64,000 nucleotides of DNA from Candidatus Leptovillus affinis (lineage in GTDB: Bacteria; Chloroflexota; Anaerolineae; Promineifilales; Promineifilaceae), in contig JADIYP010000005.1 of assembly GCA_016705235.1 (NCBI GenBank), positions 190,067 to 254,066 of the forward strand, in the 5' to 3' direction. The position numbers and the translations under genes are program-made. Shown here in pieces: positions 1-64,000 of the stretch (positions are counted from its first letter, which is position 1; every line of letters begins with the position of its first letter). The notes under the pieces are model-generated. The model was given only the letters and a program-made list of their open reading frames with translations, did no database searches and was not told the origin of the DNA.

Positions 1-1683
1 AGCGCCGCCAGGCAGCAGGTCGAAGTTGATATGGGTAATGGTGCTGTTGGTAACTACTGGCACGCGGTCGGACAGATGATGGAAAGGTTGATGATCGTAA
101 TATTGGCGAGCATACCCTAAAGGCAGGTTGTTACTGTCGTCTACGGCCACGCGATAATCGGCGGCCGGCAAAGCGGTGATGGTATAGACGCCGCTGGCAT
201 CCGTCCAGCCGCTTGCGCCAATCCAGCCGGTGTCGTATTCGTTGGCGTTAACGTGCAAATCGGGGATCGGCAGGCCGGTTGCGTTGTCTAAAACCCGGCC
301 GGTGATGACCCCGCCTATGTCAAGGGTGAAGTTGACGTTGGCATAGTCGTCATTGCCGGCCTGGAGGACAAAGGGGGTGGCGGCATTGGTGTCGCTGGTT
401 TCGTTGTAGTATTCAACGGCATAGACAGATGGCTGGTTGAGGCACCAGTTCCAATCGCCGCTGGCGCGGATTTTGTAGCTGCCGTAGGGGAGGCCGTCGA
501 GGATGTAACGGCCGTTTGCATCTGTGCATGTACCCGCTCCGCCTTGCTCGATGTCGACGCCGATGTTGGGCAAAGGTGTCACGCCGTCGGCCGCGTACAC
601 CGTGCCGGTGATGCGCCCGCCGGGTTGAAGGATGACCGTGACGCTGACGGTTCCGGCGCCAACGATGGGCAAGCGTTGGGCATCGTTTTCATTGAATTGC
701 CCGTCGTACCATTGGTCGGCCCAGGGGTAGGGTGCGTTGACCGAAAGCGTGTAGTTGTCGTCGGGAAGGCCGCCCAGGTAGAAACGGCCGTCGCCGAGGA
801 CATAGGTGTCGCCATACTGCTGTTGGTGGGGATATGGCGTACGCGACCCAATGCCATAAACCCAGGCAGGCGTAACGCCATCATCTTCAAAGACGAAGCC
901 CTGAATAATGCCATAGGGCGGCGTGGTAATTTCTCCGGCAGCGGGTTGGTCGCCGATAATTTCCACATAACCCACGAAGGTGGTATCGCCAATGGCGGCG
1001 GAATCCATGTTATAGATCATGCTTTCGCCAGGGGCCAGCAAGAAAGGACCGTCAGAGCCATCATACTGGCCGTTCAGCCAGAAGAAATCGAGAAAATAAC
1101 TCATGGCGGCCGCGCCGGTATTGGTGAAGATGAACGTGGAGGAAAAAGCCTCGGGGTAGCCAGTGGCGCGATGCAGAGGCTGTAGGGTCAGTGTGTACAG
1201 GCCGGTGGTGGCCAGGGGGGCGTGGTTGGTGATTTGTGGTTCGTAACTTGTCGTCCGAACGTCGCGCTCCATCGTCGGCATTGGTTCGGGGTTCACTGTT
1301 GTCGGAGTCCGGTTTGTGGCATAGGGATTACGGTGTACGGTGTATACGTTACGGCCGTCGGTCAGGTCGCGCTGCCGCCACCAATCAATGGGCAGGTAAT
1401 CGGAGGGAGGACGGATAGGCATATTGCGCTCTGGCAAGGTAAACAAATCAGTGGCGTCCTGAGTTTCTGGAGTTATAGATTGTTCGACAGGGCTGGTGGT
1501 TCTATCGAGAGGGACAGGTAGAAAAGTAAGTTGAGAAGGGTTGTCGGGAACGGCCGTTCCTGGCGCCGATTCTCGCGCAGGCGAGACAATGACCAGTGTC
1601 TGACCATGAGCAAATGACAATAGCATCGATAAAGCCAACAAGGAAAAACCAAGGGAAAATAGAAGAATAGTAACACGGCGCAT
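1..1683 (-). CDS. Secreted protein with repeated carboxypeptidase-regulatory-like (Ig-like beta-sandwich) domains; 3' end runs off the window
   Basis: Absent from the ORF track because it has no stop in the window. My translation of the minus strand from ATG 1683..1681 stays open to base 1 (561 codons). It starts with a signal peptide, MRRVTILLFSLGFSLLALSMLLSFAHG. Repeats follow, such as GRITGTVYAADGVTPLPNIGVDIE..DANGRYILDGLPYGSYKIRAS and GVITGRVLDNATGLPIPDLHVNANE..DASGVYTITALPAADYRVAV. The plus-strand ORFs 544..1185 and 1222..1521 are shadows of this gene. Confidence 0.75.
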   Translation of the reverse strand, partial: MRRVTILLFSLGFSLLALSMLLSFAHGQTLVIVSPARESAPGTAVPDNPSQLTFLPVPLDRTTSPVEQSITPETQDATDLFTLPERNMPIRPPSDYLPIDWWRQRDLTDGRNVYTVHRNPYATNRTPTTVNPEPMPTMERDVRTTSYEPQITNHAPLATTGLYTLTLQPLHRATGYPEAFSSTFIFTNTGAAAMSYFLDFFWLNGQYDGSDGPFLLAPGESMIYNMDSAAIGDTTFVGYVEIIGDQPAAGEITTPPYGIIQGFVFEDDGVTPAWVYGIGSRTPYPHQQQYGDTYVLGDGRFYLGGLPDDNYTLSVNAPYPWADQWYDGQFNENDAQRLPIVGAGTVSVTVILQPGGRITGTVYAADGVTPLPNIGVDIEQGGAGTCTDANGRYILDGLPYGSYKIRASGDWNWCLNQPSVYAVEYYNETSDTNAATPFVLQAGNDDYANVNFTLDIGGVITGRVLDNATGLPIPDLHVNANEYDTGWIGASGWTDASGVYTITALPAADYRVAVDDSNNLPLGYARQYYDHQPFHHLSDRVPVVTNSTITHINFDLLPGGA

Positions 1684-2031
1684 GGATAATCCACCTTTAG
1701 GTAAAGAACCGATGTTGCTTTGCCAATATAAAATTTTTAAACACCAATTTTGGGGCTTTTTAGGGGGGGCAAGCAGCCACTCTCGTCTGTGTTAGAGAGG
1801 TCGGGCTCCCAGTGTTGTCACTATAGATCGCGGAAACAATTAACAGCCAGTGATGAATGTCATCTTAAGGCGATGACAAATGTAAGGAAAATGAGGATTT
1901 GGAAGTCAGGTTTCAGAGTCTCGAACGGTGGGGAACTGGAACATTAATCGCCTGAGGTTAGCTGGATGAGTTCCCAAAATCTTTTATTACGAGAGACGTT
2001 ATGATCGCGTTAAAGCAATTGTAAAAAAGCC

Positions 2032-2140
2032 CTAGCAGTCTGTCGGAGAACCTCTTTTTGTAGCCGGGGTATCCTTACCCCGCCTCTGGAAGACGCGGTA
2101 AGAAACCGCGGCTACGGGTACTTTTCCGACAAACTGCTAG
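2032..2140 (+). repeat. 109-bp foldback (MITE-like) element, copy A
   Basis: The termini CTAGCAGTCTGTCGGAGAA ... TTCCGACAAACTGCTAG are inverted repeats, and the two arms are near-complementary along their whole length. Near-identical copies lie at 7254..7362 (inverted) and 27021..27126 (direct). Confidence 0.85.
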
Positions 2141-5717: not shown

Positions 5718-7232
5718 CTATGTGGGCGGAGTAATGGGGGGCGAATTGAAAACGGCCGTTTTCAATTCAAACACCTCTAACGAGTTCAAATGAACAGCGG
5801 CCCCTTCCGTGAAAATATCAAATTCTATGCGGCTTTCATGCGGAAACAGCCGTTCGCTAAAACAAATCAGCCCATCGCTGGCAAATACTTCAACCATGGA
5901 ACGATCGACAAAAATATGCAGGCGCAAACGGCCGTGATGCAAAGGAAGCTCAGTCTGGTGTACGCCGGGGAAATCCGCATGGAAATAAACCTGCCCCGCC
6001 TGGCGGCGGTCCGTATATAAGATTTGTTTTTGCGGGTCATAACCTATTGTCATGGCATTTTCGTGACCAGACAGTACCCGAACGCCAAAACAATCCGCCT
6101 TTACCACACCCTCAAATTCAGCCATGATCTCTAGCGTGGTTCCTTTGATAATAGGATGAAAAGGGGCATCCGGTTGAATAGTCGCGTTGGTCCAAATCCA
6201 GCGAGTATGACGCAGCCGCTTGAGTTCGGAAACAGGCTGTTGAATCAGGCGAATACCGGCATCCGTTTTCACCAGCTCCAGCTCTCGCGGAATACTCAAG
6301 TCTCCACGCCAGGCAGACGTGGGAATAGCAGCCGCATAACGCCAATTATTCATCCAGGCCAACCAGATACGACGGCCGTCCGGCGCATCATGCCATGATT
6401 GGGCCGCGTAAAAATCTGCGCCAAAATCGGCCCAAAACACACAATCGCCTGGCTGGTCGCAGGTGAATGTATGGCCATCAAACGTCCCGATAAAATATCT
6501 CGTGCCGCTTCTGCCCCCCGGCATTCTGTTGTCGAGGCCAATAGCTAACACCCAACGGCTTTCGGAACAACCCGCCACCGGCAGTTGAAACAAATCGGGC
6601 GTCTCCCACAAACCGGTTGCGGCGCTTTGTGGATGGCTGAAACGGCCGTTTTCCTGCCAATCAATCAGATTATCCGAGGTGTAAAACAATATCTGATCGT
6701 TAGCGGCCAGCGACATGACCCAATGGCCCGCACCCTCCTCCGCTTGATACCAGATCACTTTTGGGTCTCGGAAATCACGCAAATGCGCCGGCGTAGGAAT
6801 GATGGGATTGCCCGCGTACTTTGTCCAGGAACGGCCGTTGTCTGTACTATAAGCCAGACTCTGACTTTGATCCCTCGTGTCAGGGTGATGGTGGGTAAAA
6901 AACAAAATCATCGCCTCCTCACCAAAACCCGCGCGATTGTGCCAATCAATGACCCCACTGCCCGAAAAAATATACCCCAATTCATCAGGAAACAAGGCGA
7001 TGGGTAAATGCTGCCAATTCACCAAATCTCTACTGACCGCATGGCCCCAATGCATCGGCCCCCAGACCGTGTCATCCGGGTAAAACTGGTAAAACAGATG
7101 GTACTCCCCAGCATAAAACACCAGGCCATTCGGGTCATTCAGCCACCCCTTCCGCGGCGTGAAGTGAAATTGTGGGCGGAACGGCTCACTCAGCACAAGC
7201 GCCGGCGATGTAGATATGTCATCTCTGGCCAT
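5718..7232 (-). CDS. Glycoside hydrolase family 32 (beta-fructofuranosidase / sucrose-6-phosphate hydrolase / levanase type)
   Basis: FHFTPRKGWLNDPNGLVFYAGEYHLFYQFYP matches the WMNDPNG catalytic box. Also present are FRDPKV (the RDP motif) and WETPDLF (the EC-type acid/base context). Confidence 0.9.
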   Translation of the reverse strand: MARDDISTSPALVLSEPFRPQFHFTPRKGWLNDPNGLVFYAGEYHLFYQFYPDDTVWGPMHWGHAVSRDLVNWQHLPIALFPDELGYIFSGSGVIDWHNRAGFGEEAMILFFTHHHPDTRDQSQSLAYSTDNGRSWTKYAGNPIIPTPAHLRDFRDPKVIWYQAEEGAGHWVMSLAANDQILFYTSDNLIDWQENGRFSHPQSAATGLWETPDLFQLPVAGCSESRWVLAIGLDNRMPGGRSGTRYFIGTFDGHTFTCDQPGDCVFWADFGADFYAAQSWHDAPDGRRIWLAWMNNWRYAAAIPTSAWRGDLSIPRELELVKTDAGIRLIQQPVSELKRLRHTRWIWTNATIQPDAPFHPIIKGTTLEIMAEFEGVVKADCFGVRVLSGHENAMTIGYDPQKQILYTDRRQAGQVYFHADFPGVHQTELPLHHGRLRLHIFVDRSMVEVFASDGLICFSERLFPHESRIEFDIFTEGAAVHLNSLEVFELKTAVFNSPPITPPT

Positions 7233-14841: not shown

Positions 14842-14868
14842 ATCTGTTGAAAAAGTGGGATAGCTTTT

Positions 14869-23984: not shown

Positions 23985-25073
23985 GTGCTCACTGTTATCA
24001 TCAATGGCCAGGAATACGTCAACGATGACCGGCAAGATGGAACCCTGGCCTCAGAAATTGGCGTCCAAAGCCTTGCCGGAGACGTGCAAGTCTTTATCCA
24101 GGTGACCAATCGCGGGCAGTTTGGGCCACAGATGGGCTATCAGCTTTTTGTGCAGGAAATGGTTCCTACGCCTGGTCCTACAGCTACCCAAACGCTGCCG
24201 CCGCCCACCGCCCAGCCAGACCCCACCAGCACCCCAGACTTGCGCGATGCGTTTGAACCCGATGAAACCACTCCGACCGTTATCCTGGTAGGCGAGACGC
24301 AAACGCGCAATTTCTTCCCTCAGGGAGACCAGGACAACGCCAGTTTTATCACCAAGGGCGGGCGTTTTTACCAGGTTGCCACGTCGAACCTGGCGCTGGG
24401 CGTAGATACGTTTCTACGCGTGACGCTAGATGGCGCTCAATGGGAAAACGACGATTATGCCCCGGCGGGCACAGGCAACTTTGCCTCGTCGGTTTGTTTT
24501 CCGGCGGCGTCGGTAGACGGCACGGCCGTTGCCAACATCACCAACAAAATGCAGCAGTTCAGCCCCAGCGCTGCCTACAACATCGCCGTTTTGGAAGTGC
24601 CGGCCCTAAGCCTGAATCTGGACCAACTGGCTTTTGGTCCGGCCGCCGCCGGCGGGGCCAACCCGCCCAACCAATCTGTGCAAATCTTTGGCGACAGTAC
24701 GTTGAGCTGGTCGGCCGTTACCAGCGCGCCCTGGCTGCAAATCAGCCCCAATCAGGGCGGCGCGCCCAGCCTGATGGATGTAACGGCGAACATTACCGGG
24801 CTACCGCAAGGCACATATGAAGGAACCATCACCTTTTCCTGGGCTTCCTTATGCCGCCGCGAAGTGAAAGTGACGTTGCAGGTTGATCCTCCGGCGGTTA
24901 GTAACAATCAGACCGGACAGGAAAATGGGCTGGTTTTGGCGATGGGGCGAGTGGGAGAAACGGCCGTTTCCCGTCGCCTCATCCTGGCGAAGCAAATCGC
25001 CCAACCCCTAACCAGCGCTGTCCCGCTGAACACCGTCGCTTTTGTCATCATTGTCGAATTGCAGGGGCAGTAA
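23985..25073 (+). CDS. 3' portion of the same PilN-like gene: two pre-peptidase-C-terminal-like domains and a BACON-like domain
   Basis: Frame B reads ...PGVDTVLTVIINGQEYVNDD directly across the frame-A stop, paralleling ALGVDTFLRVTLDGAQWENDD further on. The C-terminal LSWSAVTSAPWLQISPNQGGAPSLMDVTANITGLPQGTYEGTITF is BACON-like. Confidence 0.55.
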   Translation: MLTVIINGQEYVNDDRQDGTLASEIGVQSLAGDVQVFIQVTNRGQFGPQMGYQLFVQEMVPTPGPTATQTLPPPTAQPDPTSTPDLRDAFEPDETTPTVILVGETQTRNFFPQGDQDNASFITKGGRFYQVATSNLALGVDTFLRVTLDGAQWENDDYAPAGTGNFASSVCFPAASVDGTAVANITNKMQQFSPSAAYNIAVLEVPALSLNLDQLAFGPAAAGGANPPNQSVQIFGDSTLSWSAVTSAPWLQISPNQGGAPSLMDVTANITGLPQGTYEGTITFSWASLCRREVKVTLQVDPPAVSNNQTGQENGLVLAMGRVGETAVSRRLILAKQIAQPLTSAVPLNTVAFVIIVELQGQ

Positions 25074-42947: not shown

Positions 42948-43378
42948 TGATATCGAACGAAACAGTTTGCCCAAATTCTTCTGGCAACCATGCCCGCAGG
43001 CGCTGCACTTGACCATCGAGAAGATTCTGCAACGCTTCATTCGGCAAATCGGCCAGAACACGGCTGAAATGTCGGGAAGTCGGCAAGCTGGATTGGACGT
43101 CAGAGCCAAAGGGATGGCGCCCATCCGGGATGAGCGGAAAGCCAGCCGCCCAAACCAGGGTTGGATAGGCAGCCAGGAAGCGGCGTAACTGCGTCTTGGC
43201 GTTAATTATTGCTCTTTATCAGTCCAACCTGCTACAATGATCCCTGTCCTGGGGGGTCAACGGTGGCAGATATTCGGTATCCCCAGACACAAATTTCAAA
43301 CGGAACCGCTCCATAAATTCTTACTTCGTCAGGTTTTGCCACTTTTTTAATTCTGGAAATGTGTTGTTTACTTGACCT

Positions 43379-46117
43379 ATGCCCACTCCAATTTTAGCCA
43401 CCAAACTCTATATCCCCCCACCTCGTCCCAGCATTGTCCCGCGCCCCCGCCTGATCAATCGGCTGAACACCGGGCTGGCAATGGGTGGCAAACTGACGCT
43501 CATCTCCGCTTCTGCCGGCTTTGGCAAGACCACCCTGGTCGGCGAATGGATTGCCCATTGTGATAAGAAAGTGGCCTGGCTGTCGCTAGATGAAGGGGAC
43601 AGCGATCCGATGCGCTTCATCACTTACCTGGTAACAGCCTTACAGACTGTCAAGGCGGGATTTGGCGAAGGGCTGTTGACGGTACTCCAATCCCCTCAGC
43701 CGCCGCAAGCCGAAACCATTTTGACCACCTTGCTCAACGAAATTTCCGTCATCCCCGATCATTTTCTCCTCATCCTCGATGATTACCACGAGATCGATTC
43801 TCAACCAGTAAACCAATCCCTGACCTTCCTCGTCGAACACCAGCCGCCACAGATGCACCTGGTCATCCTCACCCGTGAAGATCCACCGCTACACCTATCC
43901 CGGTTACGCGCTCGTGGCCAACTGACTGAGTTACGCGCCGCCGATTTGCGTTTCACCCCCGCCGAGGCCGCTGAATTTCTCAACCTGATGATGGGACTAA
44001 ATCTCTCCGTAGAAGACATCGCTGCATTGGAAACTCGTACCGAAGGTTGGATCGCCGGCCTACAATTGGCTGCGCTTTCCATGCAGGGTAACAAGGATGT
44101 CTCCGGGTTCATTCGAGAATTCGCCGGAAACCACCGGTACATTGTGGACTATCTGGTCGAAGAGGTTTTGCAAAATCAGCCCGAACCTATCCGCAGATTC
44201 CTACTCCAAACTGCCATTCTCGACCGGTTGAATGGGTCGCTGTGTGATGCCGTCACCGGCAAAGAGGAAGGTGGCGCACGCTTGGAAGCCTTGCAACGAG
44301 GCAACTTCTTTATCATTCCGCTGGATGACAAGCGCAACTGGTATCGCTATCACCATTTTTTTGCCGATGTTCTTCGGATGCACTTAATGGTGGAGCAACC
44401 GGCTGAGGTCGCTGCCCTACACCAACGAGCGAGCGAGTGGTACGAGCACAATGGTTCACCGGACAATGCGATCCGCCATGCGCTGGCCGCCGAGGATTTC
44501 GTGCGATCTGCGAACCTGATCGAGTTGACCATACCCGCCATGAACATTAGCCGGCAGTTTGCCACGATGCTAGGCTGGCTAAAGGCACTACCCGACGAAC
44601 TTGTCCACGTCAGTCCTGTACTCAGTACTGAGTATGCCTTGGCGGCAATGTCTTGTGGCGAGAACGAGGACGTAGAATCCCGACTGCGGGATGCAGAACG
44701 GTGGTTACATAAGACAGCCGACACACGCGAACAACTGGAATCTCAGGGTGCGGGGATGGTCGTGGTGAACAAAGAGGAATTTCGCCGCGTGCCGGGATTG
44801 ATCGCCCTTATCCGTGCCGGCCAAGCCCTGGCTCGGGGTGATATGCCTGAGACCGTAAAAAACGCTCGGCGGGTACTCGATCTCGCGCCTGAGAATGACT
44901 ATTTGATGCTGGGTGGGGCAGCCTCGCAATTGGGACTCGCCGCGTGGACGAGCGGGGATCTCGACGACGCCCGCCGGATGAGTGCCGATGGCATGGCGAA
45001 TATTCGGCTAGCCGGGTACATCTCTCCCGCCATCGGCGGCGCCATTGTCCTGGCGGATATACAGATTGCGCAAGGCTGTCTTCAGGAGGCAATGACCACC
45101 TATGAGCGGGGATTGCAGTGGGCGACGAAGCCGGGTGCGCCAGTGCTGCAAGGCGCGGCGGATATGCACGTGGGCATGAGTACCCTTCACCGTGAGTTTA
45201 ACGATCTGAAAACTGCCACGCAGCACCTGCATACAAGCCAGACTTTGGGAGAGCTTGCCGGTTTACCGCAAAACCCATATCGTTGGTGTGCGGCGATGGC
45301 CCGCATATGGGAGGCTCAAGGCGATCTGGATGGCGCGCTCGACCTGCTCGACCAGGCCGAGCGTTTATACAATAGTAACTTTTCCCCGAATGTGCGTCCG
45401 ATCGCGACACGGAAGACACGGGTGTGGACAGCCCAGGGCCGGTTGGGCGAAGCTCTGGGTTGGGCACGGCAGCAAGGACTGTCTGTTGAAAACGAACTTC
45501 ACTACCTGCGCGAGTTCGATCACATCACCCTGGTCAGGGTACTGCTGGCCTGTTATCAGCAAGACATCGAAGATATTTCCATTGTTGAAGTAGTGGGCCT
45601 ATTGGAGCGTCTGCTAAAACATGCGGAAGAGGGCAGGAGGAAGGGCAGTGCGATTGAAATTCTGACATTGCAAGCACTTGCTTATCATGCTCAAGGCGAT
45701 CTCGCTGCTGCTCTCTTCTCATTACAGCGTGCGCTTATGCTGGCCGAGCCAGAAGGCTACGTCCGCATGTTCCTTGACGAAGGCTCAAGCATGAGGCAAC
45801 TGCTTCACGAAGCTTCCGTGCGTGAAATCATGCCAGATTACACGGACAAGCTATTGGCAGCATTTGAAGCTGAGAAACAGAAAGGCGGCGACAAACCTTC
45901 TCTACCCCATGCCCAGCCCCTTATTGACCCATTGAGCCAACGCGAGTTAGAAATCCTGAAGTTGATTGCCCAGGGACTCTCCAATCGTGCGATTGGCAAG
46001 CGGCTGTTCCTCGCTCTGGACACAATCAAAGGGCATAACCGCAAAATTTTTGACAAACTGCAAGTCCAAAGCCGTACCGAAGCCATCGCCCGTGCCCGCG
46101 AGCTTGGTTTGTTGTAA
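43379..46117 (+). CDS. MalT/LuxR-family large ATP-dependent transcriptional regulator (copy 1)
   Basis: N-terminal P-loop ISASAGFGKTTLV, a long TPR-like middle, and a C-terminal LuxR HTH LSQRELEILKLIAQGLSNRAIGKRLFLALDTIKGHNRKIFDKLQV. Confidence 0.9.
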   Translation: MPTPILATKLYIPPPRPSIVPRPRLINRLNTGLAMGGKLTLISASAGFGKTTLVGEWIAHCDKKVAWLSLDEGDSDPMRFITYLVTALQTVKAGFGEGLLTVLQSPQPPQAETILTTLLNEISVIPDHFLLILDDYHEIDSQPVNQSLTFLVEHQPPQMHLVILTREDPPLHLSRLRARGQLTELRAADLRFTPAEAAEFLNLMMGLNLSVEDIAALETRTEGWIAGLQLAALSMQGNKDVSGFIREFAGNHRYIVDYLVEEVLQNQPEPIRRFLLQTAILDRLNGSLCDAVTGKEEGGARLEALQRGNFFIIPLDDKRNWYRYHHFFADVLRMHLMVEQPAEVAALHQRASEWYEHNGSPDNAIRHALAAEDFVRSANLIELTIPAMNISRQFATMLGWLKALPDELVHVSPVLSTEYALAAMSCGENEDVESRLRDAERWLHKTADTREQLESQGAGMVVVNKEEFRRVPGLIALIRAGQALARGDMPETVKNARRVLDLAPENDYLMLGGAASQLGLAAWTSGDLDDARRMSADGMANIRLAGYISPAIGGAIVLADIQIAQGCLQEAMTTYERGLQWATKPGAPVLQGAADMHVGMSTLHREFNDLKTATQHLHTSQTLGELAGLPQNPYRWCAAMARIWEAQGDLDGALDLLDQAERLYNSNFSPNVRPIATRKTRVWTAQGRLGEALGWARQQGLSVENELHYLREFDHITLVRVLLACYQQDIEDISIVEVVGLLERLLKHAEEGRRKGSAIEILTLQALAYHAQGDLAAALFSLQRALMLAEPEGYVRMFLDEGSSMRQLLHEASVREIMPDYTDKLLAAFEAEKQKGGDKPSLPHAQPLIDPLSQRELEILKLIAQGLSNRAIGKRLFLALDTIKGHNRKIFDKLQVQSRTEAIARARELGLL

Positions 46118-46294
46118 GACTCAATTTTCCCCAATACTTTCCCTCAATAACCAAAAACAACACCTCTAACCAACACTAAAGTGTCTGTTCGTTAACACTA
46201 TGTGGGGGCTATTATCTTTGTACATTCCCGTACAAAGATCGGGACCATGAGCAAGTGGCATGTGGTGTAACGGCCGTTCCAATACAGGTACAAG

Positions 46295-46558
46295 GTGATG
46301 TCAAACGAACTCAAACCCAAACCAACTCCCAATCAAACCATGATCTATCAGATCAAGATTAAGGGCCATCTAGCTCGTGAATGGACAGACTGGTTTGAGG
46401 GCCTGACCATCACGCTGGAAGAGGACGGCAATACGCTTTTAACCGGTCCTGTACTTGACCAGGCCGCGTTGCATGGTTTGCTCAAAAAAGTACGTGATTT
46501 GGGAATGCCATTGGTCTCTGTCAGCCCAGTCCAATTCGATGAAACTCATCCATATTAA
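46295..46558 (+). CDS. Small conserved hypothetical protein (paralogue of 51563..51802)
   Basis: YQIKIKGHLAREWTDWFEGLTITLEEDGNTLLTGPVLDQAALHGLLKKVRDLGMPLVSV compares with YQIRVEGHLLPQWMDWFDGLTITLEENGDTILTGLVVDQANLHGLLKKVRDLGMPLVSV in the paralogue. Confidence 0.7.
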   Translation: MMSNELKPKPTPNQTMIYQIKIKGHLAREWTDWFEGLTITLEEDGNTLLTGPVLDQAALHGLLKKVRDLGMPLVSVSPVQFDETHPY

Positions 46559-46572
46559 ACGAGGAGATAAAA

Positions 46573-47289
46573 ATGAATTCAATCAATAAGACCGCAAGGA
46601 GAGCAGGGTTTCTATATTTCATTTACATGCTAACTCATATCATAAGTGATGTGTGGCGCGATAGCTTTATTGTGCCTGGGGATACTGCTGCAACAGCCAA
46701 TAACATCATGGCTCATGAAGGGTTGTTCACTATCACTGCTGTAGGTGATCCACTCTCTGCTGCACTTTTCTTTTTAGCCGCCTGGGCTCTCTTTGTTTTA
46801 CTCAAACCGGTTAATAAAAACCTTGCCCTCCTATTTTTGTTATTAAACCTGGCTGGCGCCGTAATCCAGTGTGTGAGTGCAATTAATCTATTTGCTGCTC
46901 TGTTGCTTATGAATGGTCCTGATTACTTGAACGTGTTCCAGGTGGCTCAATTGCAATCTCTGGCAATGTTCTTCCTTGATTTACGCGAAAAAGGGTTTAT
47001 GGTTGCCCAACTATTTTATGGCGCCTGGCTCTTTCCGCTGGGCTACTTAATCTTCAAGTCGGGCTTCCTTCCCAAAATTTTGGGTATCATACTGATGGTT
47101 CATTGTTTTACCTGGTTGTTGACCTTCTTTCAGTCTTTCCTCTTCCCAGGCTTCATGGCCATCACCTATGTAAGCTATCCACTTGGCTTCATTGCGGAAT
47201 TTGGGCTTACTTTGTGGCTCTTGGTCATGGGTGCAAAAGAGCAGAAAACAGCATCAGTTGAATTTAACCACCCATCACAAGGAGAATAA
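46573..47289 (+). CDS. Polytopic membrane protein, DUF4386-like
   Basis: ARRAGFLYFIYMLTHIISD...GDTAATANNIMAHEGLF plus about 6 TM helices. Confidence 0.55.
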   Translation: MNSINKTARRAGFLYFIYMLTHIISDVWRDSFIVPGDTAATANNIMAHEGLFTITAVGDPLSAALFFLAAWALFVLLKPVNKNLALLFLLLNLAGAVIQCVSAINLFAALLLMNGPDYLNVFQVAQLQSLAMFFLDLREKGFMVAQLFYGAWLFPLGYLIFKSGFLPKILGIILMVHCFTWLLTFFQSFLFPGFMAITYVSYPLGFIAEFGLTLWLLVMGAKEQKTASVEFNHPSQGE

Positions 47290-47748
47290 ATGTTAAAAAA
47301 AGGTTCAACACTCCTTTCAATATGGTGCGGCATCAACTTTATCCTTGCCTTTATCATATTATGCTACGTAATCGTTCTCAAACAGAACTCCCCGATTCTG
47401 CAAGTAGCGTCATTTTCAGAGGCTGAAATTGCGGGGCTTAGCGCCAAAGTCATCGCCGCGCTCAATTGTTTTACGATCCTGTACAATTCCTGCGCGCTGA
47501 TGGTTTCCGTGCTAACGTGGCCGCTCATCCGCAAAAACCTGGTCGCCGGCGAAAGATCGGCTTTCTGGATGCTGGCTTTCGTGATTGGTTTTATCGAAGT
47601 GATGGCATTTCTCGCTTCTTCCTACATCGGGCATGGACGCTGGCAGGTGAACGTCCTTCAGAGCATCCTTTACATTGTAGGTATTGGCTTGTGTGCATAT
47701 CCCATGCTCAAGATAAACCACAGACTGCAAGGTCAAACAATAAGATAG
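47290..47748 (+). CDS. Hypothetical membrane protein
   Basis: 152 aa with about 4 TM helices. Its start abuts the upstream stop. Confidence 0.55.
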   Translation: MLKKGSTLLSIWCGINFILAFIILCYVIVLKQNSPILQVASFSEAEIAGLSAKVIAALNCFTILYNSCALMVSVLTWPLIRKNLVAGERSAFWMLAFVIGFIEVMAFLASSYIGHGRWQVNVLQSILYIVGIGLCAYPMLKINHRLQGQTIR

Positions 47749-47763
47749 GAAAAGAGTACAAAC

Positions 47764-48738
47764 ATGAAAGCGATTGTCTGCACGAAATATGGTTCGCCAG
47801 ATGTTCTTCAACTCCAGGAGGTGGAAAACCCTTCTCCGAAAGATGATGAAGTGTTGATCAAAATTCATGCGGCATCCATCAATTCGCGTGACTGGCGCAT
47901 GATGCGAGCAAATCCGTTTTTTATCCGCCTGATGCCGGGAGGCTTTCTTCAACCCAAAAACAAGATACTCGGTGGCGATGTTGCCGGGCGGATCGAGGCG
48001 GTTGGCAGGTACGTCAAGCAATTCAAGCCAGGCGATGAGGTTTTTGGGTACCTGCCCAGTGCAACCGGCCGTGGCACTTTTGCCGAATATGTCTGCGCCA
48101 ATGAAAATGCAATCACACTGAAGCCCGCCAACCTGACATTTGAGCAGGCTGCGGCTGTACCACTAGCGGCGCTGACTGCCTTACAGGGATTACGCGACAA
48201 TGGGCACATCCAATCAGGGCAAAAAGTTTTGATCAATGGCGCCTCTGGTGGTGTGGGAACGTTTGCCGTGCAGATTGCCAAAGCGTTCGGGGCGGAAGTC
48301 ACAGCGGTATGCAGCACAAGGAATCTGGACATGGCGCACTCGATTGGGGCAGACCATACCATCGACTACACCAAAGAAGATTTTACCCGAAATGGTCAAC
48401 AGTATGATCTGATTCTAGCTGTGAATGGGTATCATCCGATTTCAGAGTATCTGCATGCATTAAGCCCTGAGGGAATCTATGTCGTCGCTGGCGGTTCCAT
48501 GTTCCAACTCTTCCAGGCTGCGCTTCAAGGACGGAAAACTTCAAAGACAACCAGGCAGAAAACGTATGTCGTGTCGCTGGTACAAAATCAAAAAGATCTG
48601 GTCTTTATGCAAAACTTACTTGAATCCGGCAAGGTCGTGCCAGTGATCGATGGCTGTTATCCGTTGAGCAAGGCGGCTGAAGCTCTCTGGTATTTTGAGA
48701 AAGAACATGCCCAAGGGAAAGTGATCATCACGGTATGA
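47764..48738 (+). CDS. NAD(P)H-dependent quinone oxidoreductase / zinc-type alcohol dehydrogenase-like (MDR superfamily), copy 1
   Basis: MKAIVCTKYGSPDVLQL...GDEVFGY...VLINGASGGVGTFAVQIAKAFGAEVTAVCS. Confidence 0.85.
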   Translation: MKAIVCTKYGSPDVLQLQEVENPSPKDDEVLIKIHAASINSRDWRMMRANPFFIRLMPGGFLQPKNKILGGDVAGRIEAVGRYVKQFKPGDEVFGYLPSATGRGTFAEYVCANENAITLKPANLTFEQAAAVPLAALTALQGLRDNGHIQSGQKVLINGASGGVGTFAVQIAKAFGAEVTAVCSTRNLDMAHSIGADHTIDYTKEDFTRNGQQYDLILAVNGYHPISEYLHALSPEGIYVVAGGSMFQLFQAALQGRKTSKTTRQKTYVVSLVQNQKDLVFMQNLLESGKVVPVIDGCYPLSKAAEALWYFEKEHAQGKVIITV

Positions 48739-48803
48739 TGCGAAGGGTTTCGATCTTCGTTGGGAGGCTTTTTGAATCGTGAGGCGTGTTTTATAATGGT
48801 CCT

Positions 48804-51488
48804 ATGTCCACTCCGATTTTAGCCACCAAACTGTATATTCCCCCACCCCGTCCCAGCATTGTCCCGCGCCCCCGCCTGATCAATCGGCTGAACACCGGGC
48901 TGGCAATGGGTGGCAAACTGACGCTCATCTCCGCTTCGGCCGGCTTTGGCAAGACCACAATGGTTAGCGAATGGCTTGCCCATTGTGGGAGACCGGTTGC
49001 CTGGCTGTCGCTGGATGAAGGGGACAGCGATCCCACGCGCTTTCTGGTTTACCTCGTTGCAGCATTGCAGACAATTGCGCCAAAGATTGGCGTCAGCGTG
49101 TTGGCGGCACTCCAATCGCCGCAACCACCGCCAACCGAAACGATTCTGATAACCTTGCTCAATGAAATTACCACCATCTCGGACAATTTCATCCTCGTTC
49201 TTGACGACTACCACGTCATTGATTCTAAACCGGTTGACAACGCCCTGACCTTTCTCATTGACCACCAGCCGCAGCAGATGCACCTGGTTATCGCCACCCG
49301 CGAAGACCCATCTCTGTCCCTGCCCCGGTTACGCGCCCGCGGCCAACTGACCGAGATGCGCGCTGCCGACTTACGTTTCACCCCTGCCGAGGCCGCTGAA
49401 TTTCTCAACCAGATGATGGGCCTGAACCTTTCAACGGAAGACATCACCGCACTGGCAACCCGTACCGAAGGTTGGATCGCTGGCCTGCAATTAGCCGCCC
49501 TCTCCATGCAGGGGCGCTCAGATACCGCCAGGTTCATCAAATCTTTCACTGGCAGCCACCATTTCGTACTCGACTATCTGGTCGAAGAAGTTTTGCAACA
49601 GCAGTCCGACCGAATTCAGAATTTTTTGTTGCGCACCTCCATCCTCGACCGCATGTGCGGTCTCCTTTGTGATGCTGTTCTGCTCGACTCTCCTGCAGCC
49701 GGACAAGAGACCCTGGAATATCTCGAACGTGCGAACCTGTTCATTGTCCCTTTGGATAACGAACGGCGTTGGTATCGTTATCACCACTTATTCGGCGATT
49801 TATTGCGCCAGCGTCTCGGCGCTCCCCCGGCGCTCGCCGAGTATCACTGCCGCGCCAGTCAATGGCACGAAGCCAACGGTGACCTATCCGAAGCATTTCA
49901 TCACGCCTTGTCCGCCGCAGATTTCGAGCGGGCAGCACGCCTGGCCGAAGCCGCCTGGCCGGTCGCGGAAGAGTCTTTCCAATCTGCTGCCTGGCTTGTC
50001 TGGGTGAACCAATTGCCCGAAGGAGTCGTCCGCTCGAGGCCAGAGTTGTGTTTCCAGGCCGGCCGGGCGTATTCAGACACCGGGGATCCCAAAACGAGCG
50101 AGATTCACCTGCAAAATGCCGAGCGCGCTCTGGCCGTAGCGCCCGACCAGTCCAGGTTTGCTATCCTGCCGGGTAACATTGCCTTGACCCGCGCTTATAA
50201 CGCCCAGGTACAGGGAAATTTGATGGACGCCGTCAAATTCGCTGAACTGGCACTGCAACTTATTCCCGAGGACGACATCTATCACCGCGCCCAAGCCGTG
50301 ATCACATTGGAATTCACCCACTGGGCAAGCGGCGACTTGGATTCTTCCCTCCATGCCATCCGCGCCTGGATGGCGGATATGCACAAAGTGGGCAACCCGA
50401 TCTTTGTGATTGCCAGCGCCTTTGCCGAAGCTGACTTGCTGGTTGCGTTGGGACGTCTGCACGAAGCCATTCGCGCCTACCAGCAGGCTTTACAGCTTGC
50501 CGCCGAACATGGCGCGGAAGCGCAGCAGATTACCGCTCATCATCACCTGGGACTGGCGCTGATTTATCACGAGTTGGGCGACTCTGAGTCCACGGCCGTG
50601 CATTTGCAAACCGCTGCCGACCTCGGCAAGCACACCACCCTGGTGGACTGGCTCCATCGCTGGAAACTGGCCCAGGCCCGGTTCAAAGAATCGGCCGGGG
50701 AATGGGACGCCGCGCTTGAACTGCTCGACGAAGCCAAACGGAACCACGTCAAAAACCCGGTTCCCATCACCCGCCCGGTCGAAGCGCTCAAAACGCGAAT
50801 CTATCTCAAACAGGAGCGGCTGGACAAAGCGCAAGAGTGGGCACAGGAGTGGGCCCAAGAGTGGGGGAATTCGACCACCAACGAGGTCAGTTACCTCACA
50901 GAGTTTGACCTGCTAACCCTGGCGCGGGTGCGACTGGCGGAGGGTTCTTTTGCCGGGGTGGACGAGTTGCTGGAACGCCTGCGAATCCTGGCGGAAGCGC
51001 AAAAGCGGCAGGGCAGTGTGTTAGAAATCCTGCTCACCGAGGTACTTGCCCATCAGGCGCAAGGTCACGCCCCACAGGCTCTCGCGGCGCTGGAACGCGC
51101 CTTGACCCTGGCGAAACCAGAAGGCTATCGGCGAACGTTTGTGGATGAAGGCGAAGCAATGCGGCTGCTGATTGCAGATTTTCGCTTGACGATTAGCCGA
51201 CAGCCCCATCCACTGCTCACCTACGCCGACAAACTCCTGGCCGCATTTGGCTCGCCGGCCGATTCCTCCACCGCCACTCCCCCATCTCCGCTGCTTGATG
51301 CCCTGACCCCCCGTGAACTCGAAATCTTACGCCTCGTCGCCCAGGGACTTTCCAATACCGAAATCAGCCAGCGGTTATACCTGGCGCTCAGCACGGTCAA
51401 GGGACACAACCTGCGGATTTTTAACAAATTCCAGGCACAGAACCGCACCGAGGCCGTTGCTCGCGCCCGTGAGTTAGGTCTGCTGTAA
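48804..51488 (+). CDS. MalT/LuxR-family large ATP-dependent transcriptional regulator (copy 2)
   Basis: Same architecture as copy 1. The first 50 or so residues are almost identical to copy 1 (MSTPILATKLYIPPPRPSIVPRPRLINRLNTGLAMGGKLTLISASAGFGKTT). The C-terminal LuxR HTH is LTPRELEILRLVAQGLSNTEISQRLYLALSTVKGHNLRIFNKF. Confidence 0.9.
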   Translation: MSTPILATKLYIPPPRPSIVPRPRLINRLNTGLAMGGKLTLISASAGFGKTTMVSEWLAHCGRPVAWLSLDEGDSDPTRFLVYLVAALQTIAPKIGVSVLAALQSPQPPPTETILITLLNEITTISDNFILVLDDYHVIDSKPVDNALTFLIDHQPQQMHLVIATREDPSLSLPRLRARGQLTEMRAADLRFTPAEAAEFLNQMMGLNLSTEDITALATRTEGWIAGLQLAALSMQGRSDTARFIKSFTGSHHFVLDYLVEEVLQQQSDRIQNFLLRTSILDRMCGLLCDAVLLDSPAAGQETLEYLERANLFIVPLDNERRWYRYHHLFGDLLRQRLGAPPALAEYHCRASQWHEANGDLSEAFHHALSAADFERAARLAEAAWPVAEESFQSAAWLVWVNQLPEGVVRSRPELCFQAGRAYSDTGDPKTSEIHLQNAERALAVAPDQSRFAILPGNIALTRAYNAQVQGNLMDAVKFAELALQLIPEDDIYHRAQAVITLEFTHWASGDLDSSLHAIRAWMADMHKVGNPIFVIASAFAEADLLVALGRLHEAIRAYQQALQLAAEHGAEAQQITAHHHLGLALIYHELGDSESTAVHLQTAADLGKHTTLVDWLHRWKLAQARFKESAGEWDAALELLDEAKRNHVKNPVPITRPVEALKTRIYLKQERLDKAQEWAQEWAQEWGNSTTNEVSYLTEFDLLTLARVRLAEGSFAGVDELLERLRILAEAQKRQGSVLEILLTEVLAHQAQGHAPQALAALERALTLAKPEGYRRTFVDEGEAMRLLIADFRLTISRQPHPLLTYADKLLAAFGSPADSSTATPPSPLLDALTPRELEILRLVAQGLSNTEISQRLYLALSTVKGHNLRIFNKFQAQNRTEAVARARELGLL

Positions 51489-51562
51489 TTTTCCAAACAA
51501 TACTGCAAAACAATACTTTAGTTGCTACCGGGCAATACCATCCTGCCGGTATATTTGCGTTC

Positions 51563-51802
51563 ATGAAACCAACGGAAACACATCCCACTGGCTACCAAAT
51601 CCGGGTCGAAGGCCACCTTCTCCCGCAATGGATGGACTGGTTCGACGGCCTGACCATCACGCTAGAAGAGAATGGCGACACGATTCTAACCGGTCTGGTG
51701 GTTGATCAGGCGAATTTGCATGGTTTGCTAAAAAAGGTGCGTGATCTGGGTATGCCTTTGGTTTCGGTTGTTCAAGTCAAATACGCTGAAACGCATCACT
51801 AA
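51563..51802 (+). CDS. Small conserved hypothetical protein (paralogue of 46295..46558)
   Basis: See 46295..46558. Confidence 0.7.
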   Translation: MKPTETHPTGYQIRVEGHLLPQWMDWFDGLTITLEENGDTILTGLVVDQANLHGLLKKVRDLGMPLVSVVQVKYAETHH

Positions 51803-51821
51803 CATTCAAAAATGGAGAAAA

Positions 51822-52232
51822 ATGAATACAAACGTAAATCCTACTAAAAAGATCGACACGAAAGTTCTGCTCTCGACTCTGTGGATCGTTATCATGATCA
51901 ACATGTTGAAAGCGGACATCCTTTCACTGAACATTCCCGGCGCAGCGGAAGAAGTGGCGAAAACCTCAGTTAGCTCAGGCGCATCCATTCCCCAATTGAT
52001 GTTGATCGGCGCGATCATGGGGCAACTCGGTATTGCTATGATCATCCTATCCCGCGTGTTGAAGTACGGAATCAATCGTTGGGCCAATATCGTTGTGAGC
52101 CTCGTCACCATTGCCTATATTTGGGGCGGCGCAGCGTCATATCCCCACTACATTTTCATTGCCACGGTCGAGACCTTTTGCCTGCTGCTCATTATTTGGA
52201 TTGCCTGGAAATGGCGCACTCTCGAAGCCTGA
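51822..52232 (+). CDS. Hypothetical membrane protein
   Basis: MNTNVNPTKKIDTKVLLSTLWIVIMINMLKADIL... with about 4 TM helices. I prefer the ATG at 51822 to the overlapping upstream start in the track. Confidence 0.55.
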   Translation: MNTNVNPTKKIDTKVLLSTLWIVIMINMLKADILSLNIPGAAEEVAKTSVSSGASIPQLMLIGAIMGQLGIAMIILSRVLKYGINRWANIVVSLVTIAYIWGGAASYPHYIFIATVETFCLLLIIWIAWKWRTLEA

Positions 52233-52261
52233 AAAAAACGAATACGAATAGGAGAAAACTC

Positions 52262-53221
52262 ATGAAAGCGATTGTTCAAAACGACTACGGTTCATCCGAT
52301 GTTCTCAAACTGGCTGAGGTTGCCCGGCCGGCGATGAAAGATAACCAGGTATTGGTTCGCGTCAGGGCTGTTTCCATCAATGCCGGAGATGTGTTCGCTG
52401 TGCGGGGCGAGCCTTGGCCGATCCGCTTGGCAGCCGGGTTTCCCAAACCGAAAAATTATGTCCCGGGCCAGGATGTGGCCGGGGTGGTGGAGGCGGTTGG
52501 TTCCAATGTGACGGAGTTCCACCCTGGCGACGAGGTGTATGCCGCTTGCAGTGGCGCGCTTGCCGAATATGCGAGCGTGGCTGAAGATAAATTGGCGCTC
52601 AAACCCGCCAACCTCACGTTCGAGCAAGCCGCAGCCATCCCGACCGGTGCGATTACCGCCCTGAAAGGCTTGCGTGATGTCGGGAAGTTACAACCGGGGC
52701 AGAAGGTGTTGATCAATGGGGCGTCGGGAGGGGTGGGCACGTTTGCCGTGCAAATTGCCAAAGCGCTCGGCGCCGAAGTGACCGGCGTATGCAGCACACG
52801 AAATGTGGACATGGTGCGCTCCCTCGGCGCGGACGACGTTGTGGATTACACCCAGAAGGACTTCACGCAAAACGGCCGTCGCTACGACCTGATCCTGGAC
52901 AATGTCGCCAGCCATTCGTTTTCAGATATGATGCGCGTCCTCACCCCACAGGGCTTGCTCGTTCCCAACAGCGGTCACGGCGGCATGGGCTACGTGTTCA
53001 AGGCGTTTGTGCTCTCGCCATTCCGGCGTCAATTGGGGAGCATGTACCTGGCTGTGCCGAAAGGCGACGACCTGACACAGTTAAAGGAATGGATCGAAAC
53101 CGGGCAGGTCAAGCCGGTCATTGAACGAACCTACCCGCTGTCTGAAGCGCCTGAGGCATTCCGCTATCTGGAAAAAGAACACGCCCGGAGCAAAGTGGTC
53201 ATCACGGTGACAGAATTTTGA
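52262..53221 (+). CDS. NAD(P)H-dependent quinone oxidoreductase-like (MDR superfamily), copy 2
   Basis: MKAIVQNDYGSSDVLKL...GDEVYAA...VLINGASGGVGTFAVQIAKALGAEVTGVCS. The ATG lies at 52262. Confidence 0.85.
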   Translation: MKAIVQNDYGSSDVLKLAEVARPAMKDNQVLVRVRAVSINAGDVFAVRGEPWPIRLAAGFPKPKNYVPGQDVAGVVEAVGSNVTEFHPGDEVYAACSGALAEYASVAEDKLALKPANLTFEQAAAIPTGAITALKGLRDVGKLQPGQKVLINGASGGVGTFAVQIAKALGAEVTGVCSTRNVDMVRSLGADDVVDYTQKDFTQNGRRYDLILDNVASHSFSDMMRVLTPQGLLVPNSGHGGMGYVFKAFVLSPFRRQLGSMYLAVPKGDDLTQLKEWIETGQVKPVIERTYPLSEAPEAFRYLEKEHARSKVVITVTEF

Positions 53222-53680
53222 TGTTGACGCCGATTTTCTGCAGAAATACAGACCGCCCGCCAATTAGCACAATCTTTTTGCGAACTTGTGCGCGAGCGAG
53301 CAGCGGATAAGTTGGATCACTGGTTTGTCCCCAAATAAGTTATATAGGAAATCCATACGCCGCTTCCAGCAGATATTCCAGAGTTAGGATTTGCGAATGA
53401 CGATTACCGATCACCGGCATGAAGCGGTTGGTTGACCGGGATTTTAGCGCTGTGACTGTGGTTCCTTTGATAACAAACACCCTATCGGCTTTTCTATGCC
53501 GTGATAAATATTCCGCGCCTTTCACAGGCTGGTCATGCCAGGCCCATGACCCCCGAATATGACTTTCGGCACATCCAATCGGGCGATTTCCCAGCTATCC
53601 TTCAAGCATATTGATAGCTCTTGCACAGCGGCAAACAATCACTTCGTTGTGCAATATTTAAAGGTTTGGAGGGTTATAAC

Positions 53681-63440: not shown

Positions 63441-63719
63441 GGTTAGATTTATAAGTTAGAGACAGAGGTTTTCGCCTGGTAAGCAAGGTGCAGACCCGCG
63501 AGGGGATGGCTACCACCGACCTTTGTGTTGCGGTATAATCTCTGTCTTCTTAATAATTCGAATAGGCATCGAACAAATTAATCAGCCATGGGTGTCATGG
63601 ACTGGAGGGGGGAAGCCTGTTTAACAAGCCTCTTCTCCTGGCTAAGCCTTGGTTGGCGTTAAGCAATTTGGTTTGTTTGTATTGCCATTCAAAGTTTATG
63701 TTAAATGGAGGTAGAATCA

Positions 63720-64000
63720 ATGCGTAAGTTTTTGATGATTTTGGTTTTGGTTTTGGCTTTGTCACTGGTATTGGCTGCTTGTGGCGGCGGTGGTGAAGCG
63801 AGTAGTGAAACAGCTTCGGTTGGCGTTGTTGGCAATCCGGCCCGTGGACAAAAACTGTATGAGCAAACCACGATTGGTACGGCGAGTGCGCCAGGTTGTG
63901 TGACCTGCCATTCTATGGAACCAGATGTTGTGTTGGTTGGCCCATCACATGCGGGTGTTGGCACCCGCGCTGCGACGTATGTTGCAGGCATGTCGGCCGA
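63720..64000 (+). CDS. Lipoprotein cytochrome c (partial, runs off the window)
   Basis: Absent from the track because it has no stop. GGAGG lies 8 nt before the ATG at 63720. MRKFLMILVLVLALSLVLAAC is a lipobox, and the haem motif CVTCH is present. Confidence 0.75.
   Translation, partial: MRKFLMILVLVLALSLVLAACGGGGEASSETASVGVVGNPARGQKLYEQTTIGTASAPGCVTCHSMEPDVVLVGPSHAGVGTRAATYVAGMSA

Follow-up and report, generated by a model that had tools for sequence, protein, structure and literature searches.

ACGGCCGT, a highly iterated palindrome of the HIP1 type in a clade of Chloroflexota

Why should one octamer recur about once every 600 bases along a bacterial contig? This question is raised by a 64,000-nucleotide stretch of Candidatus Leptovillus affinis (Chloroflexota; contig JADIYP010000005.1, positions 190,067 to 254,066), which was analysed as a whole and is referred to here as the window. 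An original prediction, made from the letters alone, had noticed the palindrome ACGGCCGT in it and likened it to HIP1 (GCGATCGC), the highly iterated palindrome (HIP) of cyanobacteria. We find that ACGGCCGT is a highly iterated palindrome of this type, a new element and one in a second phylum, and that a DNA-level, clade-specific, core-centred process, which works on the DNA rather than on the proteins it encodes, creates and preserves it, at about 1.5 to 4 copies per kb along the chromosome. As to the nature of that process, a methylation-linked mechanism appears the most likely, with a probability of about one half.

Abundance of the word and its imprint on proteins

A pattern search returned 94 exact copies of ACGGCCGT in the 64-kb window, close to the figure of about 90 given in the original prediction. 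This corresponds to 1.47 copies per kb overall and to 1.8 per kb in the resident DNA of the window. The mean count in 100 dinucleotide-preserving shuffles of the window was 1.3 (maximum 6), and an order-3 Markov model of the window gave 3.3. The enrichment is thus 72-fold over the shuffles and 29-fold over the Markov model; a Markov comparison, over the whole genome, had been proposed as a check, and the ratio found in the window is far from 1. ACGGCCGT is the commonest octamer of the window, outranking even the words of the CRISPR (clustered regularly interspaced short palindromic repeats) repeat, and the HIP1 word GCGATCGC showed no enrichment in the list of palindromes. In abundance, ACGGCCGT therefore falls within the HIP class, i.e. 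a palindromic octamer at about 1 per kb and at least 15-fold over expectation.

The enrichment is centred on the inner hexamer. CGGCCG occurs 153 times in the window, and 94 of these occurrences have the A...T flanks that complete the octamer. All 24 one-mismatch variants of ACGGCCGT together account for only 36 occurrences, 30 of which carry the mismatch at position 1 or 8. In the resident DNA, one-off variants with an intact core are in excess (29 versus 11 expected), and those in which it is broken are depleted (5 versus 17.5 expected). The inner 6-bp core is thus kept while the outer bases vary, which is the deviation bias of the HIP class. The copies are otherwise scattered. Within the 64 kb, the intervals between those in resident DNA follow an exponential distribution (coefficient of variation 0.95; Kolmogorov–Smirnov p = 0.40), and arithmetic on the copy positions places 5 pairs within 30 nt of each other versus ~4 expected. 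The earlier statement that copies are 'often extended' to longer palindromes is overstated. AACGGCCGTT makes up 28 of the 94 copies, and extension of the arms by 1 bp is seen in 30 copies versus 17 expected. Longer arms occur at chance (AAACGGCCGTTT, five copies; GAAACGGCCGTTTC, a single copy), apart from one perfect palindrome of 26 nt (Table 1), and the flanks are random beyond ±1 nt.

Most copies (85/94) lie wholly inside open reading frames, and the remaining nine are non-coding or at gene edges. The coding copies occupy all three phases, as had been noticed by eye: ACG GCC GTn (Thr-Ala-Val) in 42, nAC GGC CGT (x-Gly-Arg) in 35 and nnA CGG CCG Tnn (Arg-Pro) in 8. Density is 1.54 per kb in coding and 1.0 per kb in non-coding DNA. 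Against 86 copies observed in coding sequences, shuffling synonymous codons within genes left 10±3 and shuffling codon order left 1.7. As expected of a HIP, the word is therefore present in coding and non-coding DNA beyond what codon and amino acid usage provide.

In consequence, ACGGCCGT leaves its mark on the proteins. In the proteins of the window the tripeptide TAV occurs 44 times versus 8 expected, with 3 to 10 occurrences for each of the remaining five permutations, and NGR occurs 18 times versus 2.7 expected; these are the two most over-represented tripeptides, inflated 5- to 7-fold. In resident genes, the octamer encodes 41 of 41 TAV and 34 of 36 [N/D/H/Y]-G-R sites, where background codon usage would give ~12% and ~5% respectively; in the acquired block described below it encodes one of three TAV and one of three x-GR. 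Outside the octamer, ACG serves for 26% of Thr and CGT for 16% of Arg, neither being the preferred codon, while in-frame ACGGCCGT sites use ACG in 42 of 42 and CGT in 35 of 35 cases. Compatible codon sites are thus essentially saturated, a state that demands a strong and directional process acting on the DNA. ACGGCCGT takes precedence over protein coding, and its enrichment is independent of codon usage.

It follows that codon and dipeptide usage, named from the outset as the explanation that could undo the HIP reading, does not account for the copies. GCC is the preferred codon for Ala and GGC for Gly, as a by-product of codon, dipeptide or amino acid usage or of general base composition would have it, but the shuffle counts, the non-preferred codons at every in-frame site, the copies in non-coding DNA (~1 per kb) and the presence of the word in genomes of 43 to 60% GC leave this origin with next to no probability, and it was rejected.

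Clade distribution, conservation and gain of the word

We scanned one genome from each of 185,579 species for two ACGGCCGT copies within 30 nt. The scan matched at least 119 loci, and in ~45 of those listed ACGGCCGT was the top octamer, at 1 to 4 per kb. Among the matches listed, these ~45 octamer-rich loci all belong to Chloroflexota (Ardenticatenaceae, Promineifilaceae, Candidatus Leptofilum and some labelled Anaerolineae); the rest are pairs that arose by chance in actinomycetes of high GC and in other bacteria. ACGGCCGT was the top palindrome in ~43 assemblies, which span the GC range given above, and counting by assembly prefix yields at least 40 species-level genomes that carry it, with an overall density range of 0.5 to 4 per kb. 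Those that are named fall into class Ardenticatenia, orders Promineifilales and Ardenticatenales, in the NCBI taxonomy.

A phylogenetic gradient was drawn from 80 loci orthologous to the gene of cytochrome oxidase subunit I (COX1). At ≥ 71% COX1 identity, ACGGCCGT was the top palindrome in nearly all genomes (0.5 to 2.1 per kb); at 61 to 64% identity this was so in a few genomes, and the remaining Anaerolineae had 0 per kb. Three loci within the clade, L219, L223 and L210 (L-numbers are labels of the loci compared), lack the usual pattern. The word is thus clade-wide, with lineages that lose or replace it, as in the HIP class. The original prediction had called it 'lineage-specific'; this is correct in that a single clade is concerned, but the scope was drawn too narrowly, because at least 40 species of the Ardenticatenia/Promineifilales type, together with their phages, share it.

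Where the A...T octamer is weak, the core persists: CGGCCG is still enriched 3- to 10-fold in such members of the clade. In Candidatus Hadersleviella danica (L087, L141), CGGCCG is found 47 to 56 times per 8 kb versus 5 expected, at 6 to 7 per kb and with mixed flanks. L190 prefers CACGGCCGTG, and L223 and L209 prefer GCGGCCGC, the NotI site. In Anaerolineae outside the clade CGGCCG is not enriched, and in one of them, L227 (a metagenome-assembled genome (MAG) of Anaerolineaceae, GC 62%), it is avoided, with 3 occurrences where base composition predicts 18; an active restriction system of the EagI type would have this effect. As far as these sequences go, the core is the invariant part of the element, and the flanking bases differ by lineage.

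Separately, two loci from other Chloroflexota outside the clade (L245 and L241, including Candidatus Aquidulcis) contain CGCGCGCG 28 to 32 times in ~19 kb, which may be a different hyper-abundant motif in another lineage of the phylum.

The positions of ACGGCCGT are conserved between species. In blastn alignments among 21 clade loci, sorted into three bands of nucleotide identity, ACGGCCGT was kept at the aligned position in 97% of cases at ≥ 85% identity, in 81% at 75–85% and in 42% below 75%; the corresponding values for all octamers were 52%, 16% and 7%. An independent design with ten species pairs, in which each genome was used once, gave the same picture: 105 of the 166 sites present in either species were shared (63%), as compared with 25% of octamers lying 9 to 24 nt away and 23.5% of all octamers. 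Conservation above that of control octamers is a further HIP-class property.

The word is nearly missing from one part of the window. Between 43.2 and 53.3 kb there are exactly the three copies that had been reported (46270, 50592 and 52872) versus 17.1 expected (Poisson P = 4e-5); for the block as delimited in Table 1 the expectation is 17.6 and P = 2.5e-5. This block consists of two paralogous modules, each with a LuxR/MalT regulator and an oxidoreductase. Module 1 has no ACGGCCGT inside its genes and one in an intergenic spacer (46270), with a single CGGCCG in all. Relatives of its 912-aa regulator at 62–83% identity were found only in Anaerolineae genomes with 0 ACGGCCGT per ~18 kb, while clade genomes have only paralogues that are 44–46% identical, the one in the sister species (99% COX1 identity) being 44% identical. 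Moreover, the whole of module 1 is syntenic in four octamer-free loci (L413, L406, L417 and L407), at 64–85% amino acid identity. Since the closest and the syntenic relatives are all octamer-free, the module was acquired horizontally, from a related Anaerolineae lineage without ACGGCCGT. The claim that depletion marks a foreign block is hence supported, yet the block had also been described as compositionally foreign, and with the motif masked its tetranucleotide usage was not an outlier.

The copy at 52872, in module 2, points to how acquired DNA gains the word. The window reads AAC GGC CGT at this site, and octamer-free homologues read AAT GGA CGG or AAT GGG CGG, all of which encode Asn-Gly-Arg; the copy thus arose by synonymous recoding, and an acquired gene is here seen while it is being recoded. 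DNA recently acquired from outside the clade still lacks ACGGCCGT and gains it by point substitutions. As for the two regulators of the block, they are 52% identical to each other overall, and their first ~50 residues are nearly identical (43379–43540 and 48804–48965), which could reflect a strongly conserved motif or gene conversion.

Mobile elements and phage carry the word as well. When IMG/VR was scanned by the criterion used for species, ~15 contigs among the matches listed had ACGGCCGT as their top octamer, at 2 to 4 per kb. The octamer-rich contigs encode ParA, ParB, FtsK, an SLT transglycosylase, the anti-repressor Ant, a DnaC-like loader and an O-like initiator. Another contig, L555 (UViG_3300020050_013867), is a fragment of a tailed phage with portal and head-morphogenesis genes and 2.1 copies per kb; together with the plasmid- or phage-like elements L301, L354 and L286 it spans 2 to 3.7 per kb. 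DNA that replicates in these hosts thus carries ACGGCCGT even when it is not chromosomal. Because the densities equal or exceed those of the hosts, all DNA replicated in the cell is probably subject to the process.

Collectively, the 29- to 72-fold enrichment that survives codon shuffles, the restriction to one clade, the conserved positions and the deviations at the outer bases bear out the HIP-like reading of the original prediction.

The genes around these copies specify glycosidases, two-component systems, an archaellum-like cluster, a type I CRISPR-Cas system, the two LuxR/MalT–oxidoreductase modules, pyrB/pyrC and a cytochrome oxidase operon (Table 1). Proteins of the window have exact matches in the wastewater and environmental MAGs GCA_963852495.1, GCA_016713795.1, GCA_017991125.1 and GCA_017998535.1, whereas the collection of one genome per species gave no hit to the exact CRISPR repeat and no identical sensor kinase. 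The CRISPR array contains ACGGCCGT once, at 40727–40734 within the spacer 40713–40752, as the original prediction had reported. Several of its units are degenerate or truncated, e.g. near 40790–40834, 41085–41121, 41221–41258 and 41420–41466, and its spacers had no match among all loci collected in the analysis. The archaellum-like cluster (13024–22711) comprises two archaeal-type flagellins, a FlaF-like protein, a KaiC/FlaH-like ATPase fused to a receiver domain, a FlaI-like T2SSE ATPase, a FlaJ-like T2SSF membrane protein and an A24 prepilin peptidase. It is flanked by a hybrid sensor kinase and response regulators (regulators at 7675–12854 and 15795–17385). Between the archaellum-like genes and the prepilin peptidase gene, a 78-bp tandem repeat extends over 20850–21040 (2.4 copies, 97% matches).

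Table 1. Positions of ACGGCCGT copies and of associated features, counted from the first letter of the window
Feature	Positions	Strand	Basis or remark
ACGGCCGT copies (94), start positions	508, 784, 1351, 1550, 4602, 4920, 5070, 5752, 5928, 6372, 6642, 6831, 8192, 8837	.	exact match
ACGGCCGT starts, continued	10195, 10525, 10643, 10759, 11176, 11587, 11774, 11796, 11972, 12671, 13992, 14227, 16125, 16447, 17975, 18335, 19712, 19847	.	exact match
ACGGCCGT starts, continued	21078, 21451, 21598, 21841, 22250, 22430, 22632, 23293, 23584, 23782, 23933, 24522, 24960, 25735, 26361, 26637, 27975, 28666, 28964, 29811	.	exact match
ACGGCCGT starts, continued	30150, 30975, 31646, 32887, 33233, 33582, 34212, 34238, 35266, 35499, 36536, 36681, 36870, 37842, 37909, 38490, 38513, 39760, 39850, 39893	.	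exact match
ACGGCCGT starts, continued	40180, 40481, 40727, 46270, 50592, 52872, 53999, 54670, 55129, 55736, 55907, 56001, 56354, 56929	.	exact match
ACGGCCGT starts, last	57580, 57607, 57670, 57832, 57845, 58454, 59239, 61049	.	exact match
Sole 14-mer GAAACGGCCGTTTC, cited in the original prediction	24957..24970	.	count 1
26-nt perfect palindrome GAATTGAAAACGGCCGTTTTCAATTC, centred on a ACGGCCGT copy, 3' end of GH32 gene	5743..5768	.	only long extension in the window
CRISPR array, 37-nt repeat GTCGCCCCACCAGAGAATCGCCAGAGATTACTGAAAC, ~33 units	40533..42943	+	repeat itself without ACGGCCGT
ACGGCCGT-depleted block, two paralogous LuxR/MalT-regulator and oxidoreductase modules	42944..53300	+	count, Pfam
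Module 1: LuxR/MalT regulator (43379-46117), orf87, DUF4386, orf152, Zn-dependent oxidoreductase (47764-48738)	43379..48738	+	Pfam
Module 2: LuxR/MalT regulator, DUF6326, Zn-dependent oxidoreductase; copies at 50592, 52872	48786..53221	+	Pfam

Methylation as the proposed mechanism, and its rivals

CGGCCG is a classical site of type II methyltransferases and restriction enzymes of the EagI/XmaIII class. We propose that a clade-specific factor recognizes this core inside the cell, and that the factor would most likely be an orphan DNA methyltransferase specific for CGGCCG (or ACGGCCGT), as is the case for CGATCG in HIP1. The inner CGATCG of HIP1 is methylated by a dedicated orphan enzyme, slr0214/M.Ssp6803I, and methylated HIP1 sites boost transformation and recombination (bioRxiv 10.1101/2024.09.10.611283). 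Two routes from methylation to abundance can be envisaged. Methylation could direct a bias in mismatch repair or recombination that turns near-matches into full sites, the ratchet model proposed for HIP1 (Elhai, 2015; PMC4390886); alternatively, selection could act on a methylation-dependent role in recombination or in the marking of self DNA. The process would probably operate on all DNA replicating in the cell, not only on DNA taken up from outside. Methylation of CGGCCG itself, as N4-methylcytosine and as 5-methylcytosine, has been detected in metagenome bins, though only in bins with ordinary site counts and with no taxonomy attached (Nanomotif supplement); the Lake Biwa metaepigenome paper and the Nanomotif text contain nothing on the ACGGCCGT clade.

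Several results weigh against a methylation-linked process. Pfam searches of ~50 proteins of the window returned no methyltransferase, restriction gene, Vsr-like or MutH-like nuclease or other candidate reader, and its left flank had no methyltransferase either. Applied to 913 kb of clade DNA, phmmer with an M.HhaI query and motif regular expressions revealed no cognate methyltransferase, no Vsr- or MutH-like nuclease and no other candidate reader; the sole hits were a partial type IIG/BREX-like N6 enzyme, an RNA methylase and spurious open reading frames. The same search of octamer-rich mobile-element loci gave no candidate reader; the octamer-rich viral loci held an N6_Mtase fragment beside ParB and two DPPY/SPPY reading frames without a Pfam match. 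In two viral scans that looked for ACGGCCGT no more than 30 nt from a back-translated P-C-Q-x-F motif, octamer-poor contigs were the only ones with C5 methyltransferases. The restriction-modification, repair or recombination system to which the original prediction had tentatively linked the word thus has no representative in the window or in the ~1 Mb of clade and mobile DNA searched. As this DNA covers only a small part of each genome, the absence is uninformative; given that no cognate methyltransferase was found, the mechanism is one that we infer.

The pattern of site turnover adds to the case against. Where a site is not shared, the partner species usually differs at 3 to 5 of the 8 positions and one-off partners are rare, which a pure one-step ratchet alone does not predict. 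Within-species polymorphism at octamer bases is lower than expected (2 versus 5.5), a difference that is not significant. Finally, the conservation counts use related genomes, and the design with independent pairs lessens but does not remove pseudo-replication.

Among the alternatives, the best supported is a signal like the DNA uptake sequence (DUS): a competence receptor would prefer clade DNA, and uptake with recombination would spread the word by molecular drive, as for the DUS of Neisseria and the uptake signal sequences of Pasteurellaceae. Its occurrence inside and outside genes at 1 to 4 per kb, its peptide imprint, its conserved positions and its absence from DNA acquired outside the clade would all suit such a signal, and the lineage-specific flanks on a constant core resemble the DUS 'dialects' of Neisseriaceae. 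HIP1 has likewise been proposed as an uptake signal (bioRxiv 10.64898/2026.06.24.733823), for which its effect on natural transformation when methylated also speaks (bioRxiv 10.1101/2024.09.10.611283). But a virion-forming phage and plasmid- or phage-like elements that carry ACGGCCGT at host density or above are not readily explained by uptake, and are awkward for any purely uptake-driven spread. Known uptake sequences, moreover, are not palindromic, and the type IV-filament-like cluster of the window is archaellum-like. The frequent inverted pairs that serve DUS as intergenic terminators have no counterpart here either, with close pairs at chance and only one long palindrome suggestive of terminator-type pairing. 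We therefore regard uptake as an unlikely source of the word.

The mobile elements and phage would instead fit a protective signal of the Chi type, i.e. a recombination or self signal acting on a helicase-nuclease such as RecBCD or AddAB, or on another recombination enzyme, by which word-rich DNA, phages and plasmids included, would be protected and would recombine efficiently. A Chi-like contribution was suggested in the HIP1 transformation study (bioRxiv 10.1101/2024.09.10.611283). Known Chi sites, however, are asymmetric and strand-skewed with respect to replication, whereas a palindrome cannot be skewed. They are also far rarer, reportedly ~1 per 4.5 kb in E. coli, and no Chi site is known to fill the available codon sites as ACGGCCGT does, which renders this explanation improbable.

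We attach similarly little weight to a binding site for an abundant nucleoid-associated or chromosome-organizing protein that is kept by selection on chromosome architecture. Conserved positions and a core that is constant across the clade agree with it, and Xu et al. (2018; PMC5861425) argued the same for HIP1 on the grounds that its distribution is periodic. The spacing of ACGGCCGT, on the other hand, is indistinguishable from random within 64 kb, a length too short for periods of tens of kb; the near-total saturation of codon sites exceeds the need of a spacing function, and presence in small phage genomes is not predicted. These three alternatives and methylation are not mutually exclusive.

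Very improbable, finally, are a miniature mobile or repeated element (of the repetitive extragenic palindromic (REP) or miniature inverted-repeat transposable element (MITE) type) and an active restriction target, although the word is palindromic and its core is a known restriction site: conservation ends ±1 nt from the octamer and 85 of the 94 copies lie in frame inside genes, for which a REP- or MITE-type element was rejected, while restriction targets are normally avoided, as L227 illustrates, and the enrichment of ACGGCCGT and CGGCCG in hosts, mobile elements and phage argues against an unprotected target, which was rejected likewise. Nor is the word a sequencing artefact: it lies in frame, is conserved and recurs in MAGs that many independent studies produced.

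Coming back to methylation, we tentatively entertain a wider proposal: ACGGCCGT might be the recognition word of a clade-wide, methylation-dependent system of self-marking and recombination or repair, which would have evolved independently of HIP1 and would be rewriting proteins (TAV, NGR) in dozens of species and phages. HIPs would then form a general convergent class.

Relation to known systems

ACGGCCGT matches HIP1 in every HIP-class feature that we tested and departs only from HIP1's own sequence and phylum: it is not GCGATCGC, and its host is not cyanobacterial. Like HIP1 and the alternate cyanobacterial HIPs, it is an 8-bp palindrome rich in GC that occurs about once per kb, tens of fold over expectation; for HIP1, a range of 15- to 300-fold is given by Xu et al. 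(2018; PMC5861425). Both words occur in coding and non-coding DNA, unexplained by codon usage, and both are nested around a 6-bp type II methyltransferase palindrome (CGATCG in HIP1, CGGCCG in ACGGCCGT). Deviations concentrate at the first and last bases, as is documented for one-off variants of HIP1 (Elhai, 2015; PMC4390886), and positions are conserved between genomes. Each spans a whole clade, in which it is sporadically lost or gives way to a variant, and each is depleted in horizontally acquired DNA.

There are differences as well. ACGGCCGT has another sequence and belongs to another phylum (Chloroflexota, class Ardenticatenia in the NCBI taxonomy), and thus arose independently of HIP1. 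It contains no nested GATC and hence has no Dam-type partner; its outer bases are A/T, those of HIP1 G/C. The cognate methyltransferase is known for HIP1, and none was found for ACGGCCGT in the DNA searched (the window and ~1 Mb of clade and mobile DNA). Near-complete saturation of codon sites and presence in phage are shown here for ACGGCCGT.

With the DUS of Neisseria and the uptake signal sequences (USS) of Pasteurellaceae, ACGGCCGT shares a density of about 1 per kb, a location in genes, an influence on peptides, clade-specific 'dialects' and absence from foreign DNA. Those sequences are, however, 9 to 12 nt long and not palindromic, and their uptake function has been shown experimentally; unlike them, ACGGCCGT is also dense in phages and mobile elements. 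A further parallel is Dcm/Vsr very-short-patch repair in E. coli, a precedent for a repair activity tied to a methyltransferase, which reportedly raises its own site (CCWGG) and lowers one-off derivatives, a result associated with Bhagwat and McClelland in 1992. The depletion of inner one-off variants of ACGGCCGT is similar, yet the bias in E. coli is small (well below 2-fold) beside the 29- to 72-fold enrichment of ACGGCCGT, and no Vsr or C5 methyltransferase was found for the clade in the ~1 Mb searched.

Full-text literature searches gave no report that treats ACGGCCGT or CGGCCG as an iterated palindrome, and none that describes a HIP from Chloroflexota; the HIP literature (Elhai, 2015, PMC4390886; Xu et al., 2018, PMC5861425; bioRxiv 10.64898/2026.06.24.733823) covers cyanobacteria only. 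The function of HIP1 has been open for ~30 years and has been studied in a single phylum. ACGGCCGT provides a second, independent system with the same nested architecture, conservation and deviation pattern, and so allows comparative tests for co-occurring families of methyltransferases, repair nucleases, competence or recombination proteins. The members with a weak or altered motif (L219, L223, L210 and Candidatus Hadersleviella) can serve as natural knock-outs or variants in such comparisons.

For the clade itself, ACGGCCGT is a sharp host signature for the binning of contigs. With its help, phages and plasmids can be assigned to hosts among the filamentous wastewater Chloroflexota, and it can delimit recently acquired DNA that general composition misses, as in the regulator–oxidoreductase module. 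If ACGGCCGT does act in methylation-dependent self-marking, highly iterated palindromes would be general, convergently evolved genome-wide signals rather than a cyanobacterial oddity.

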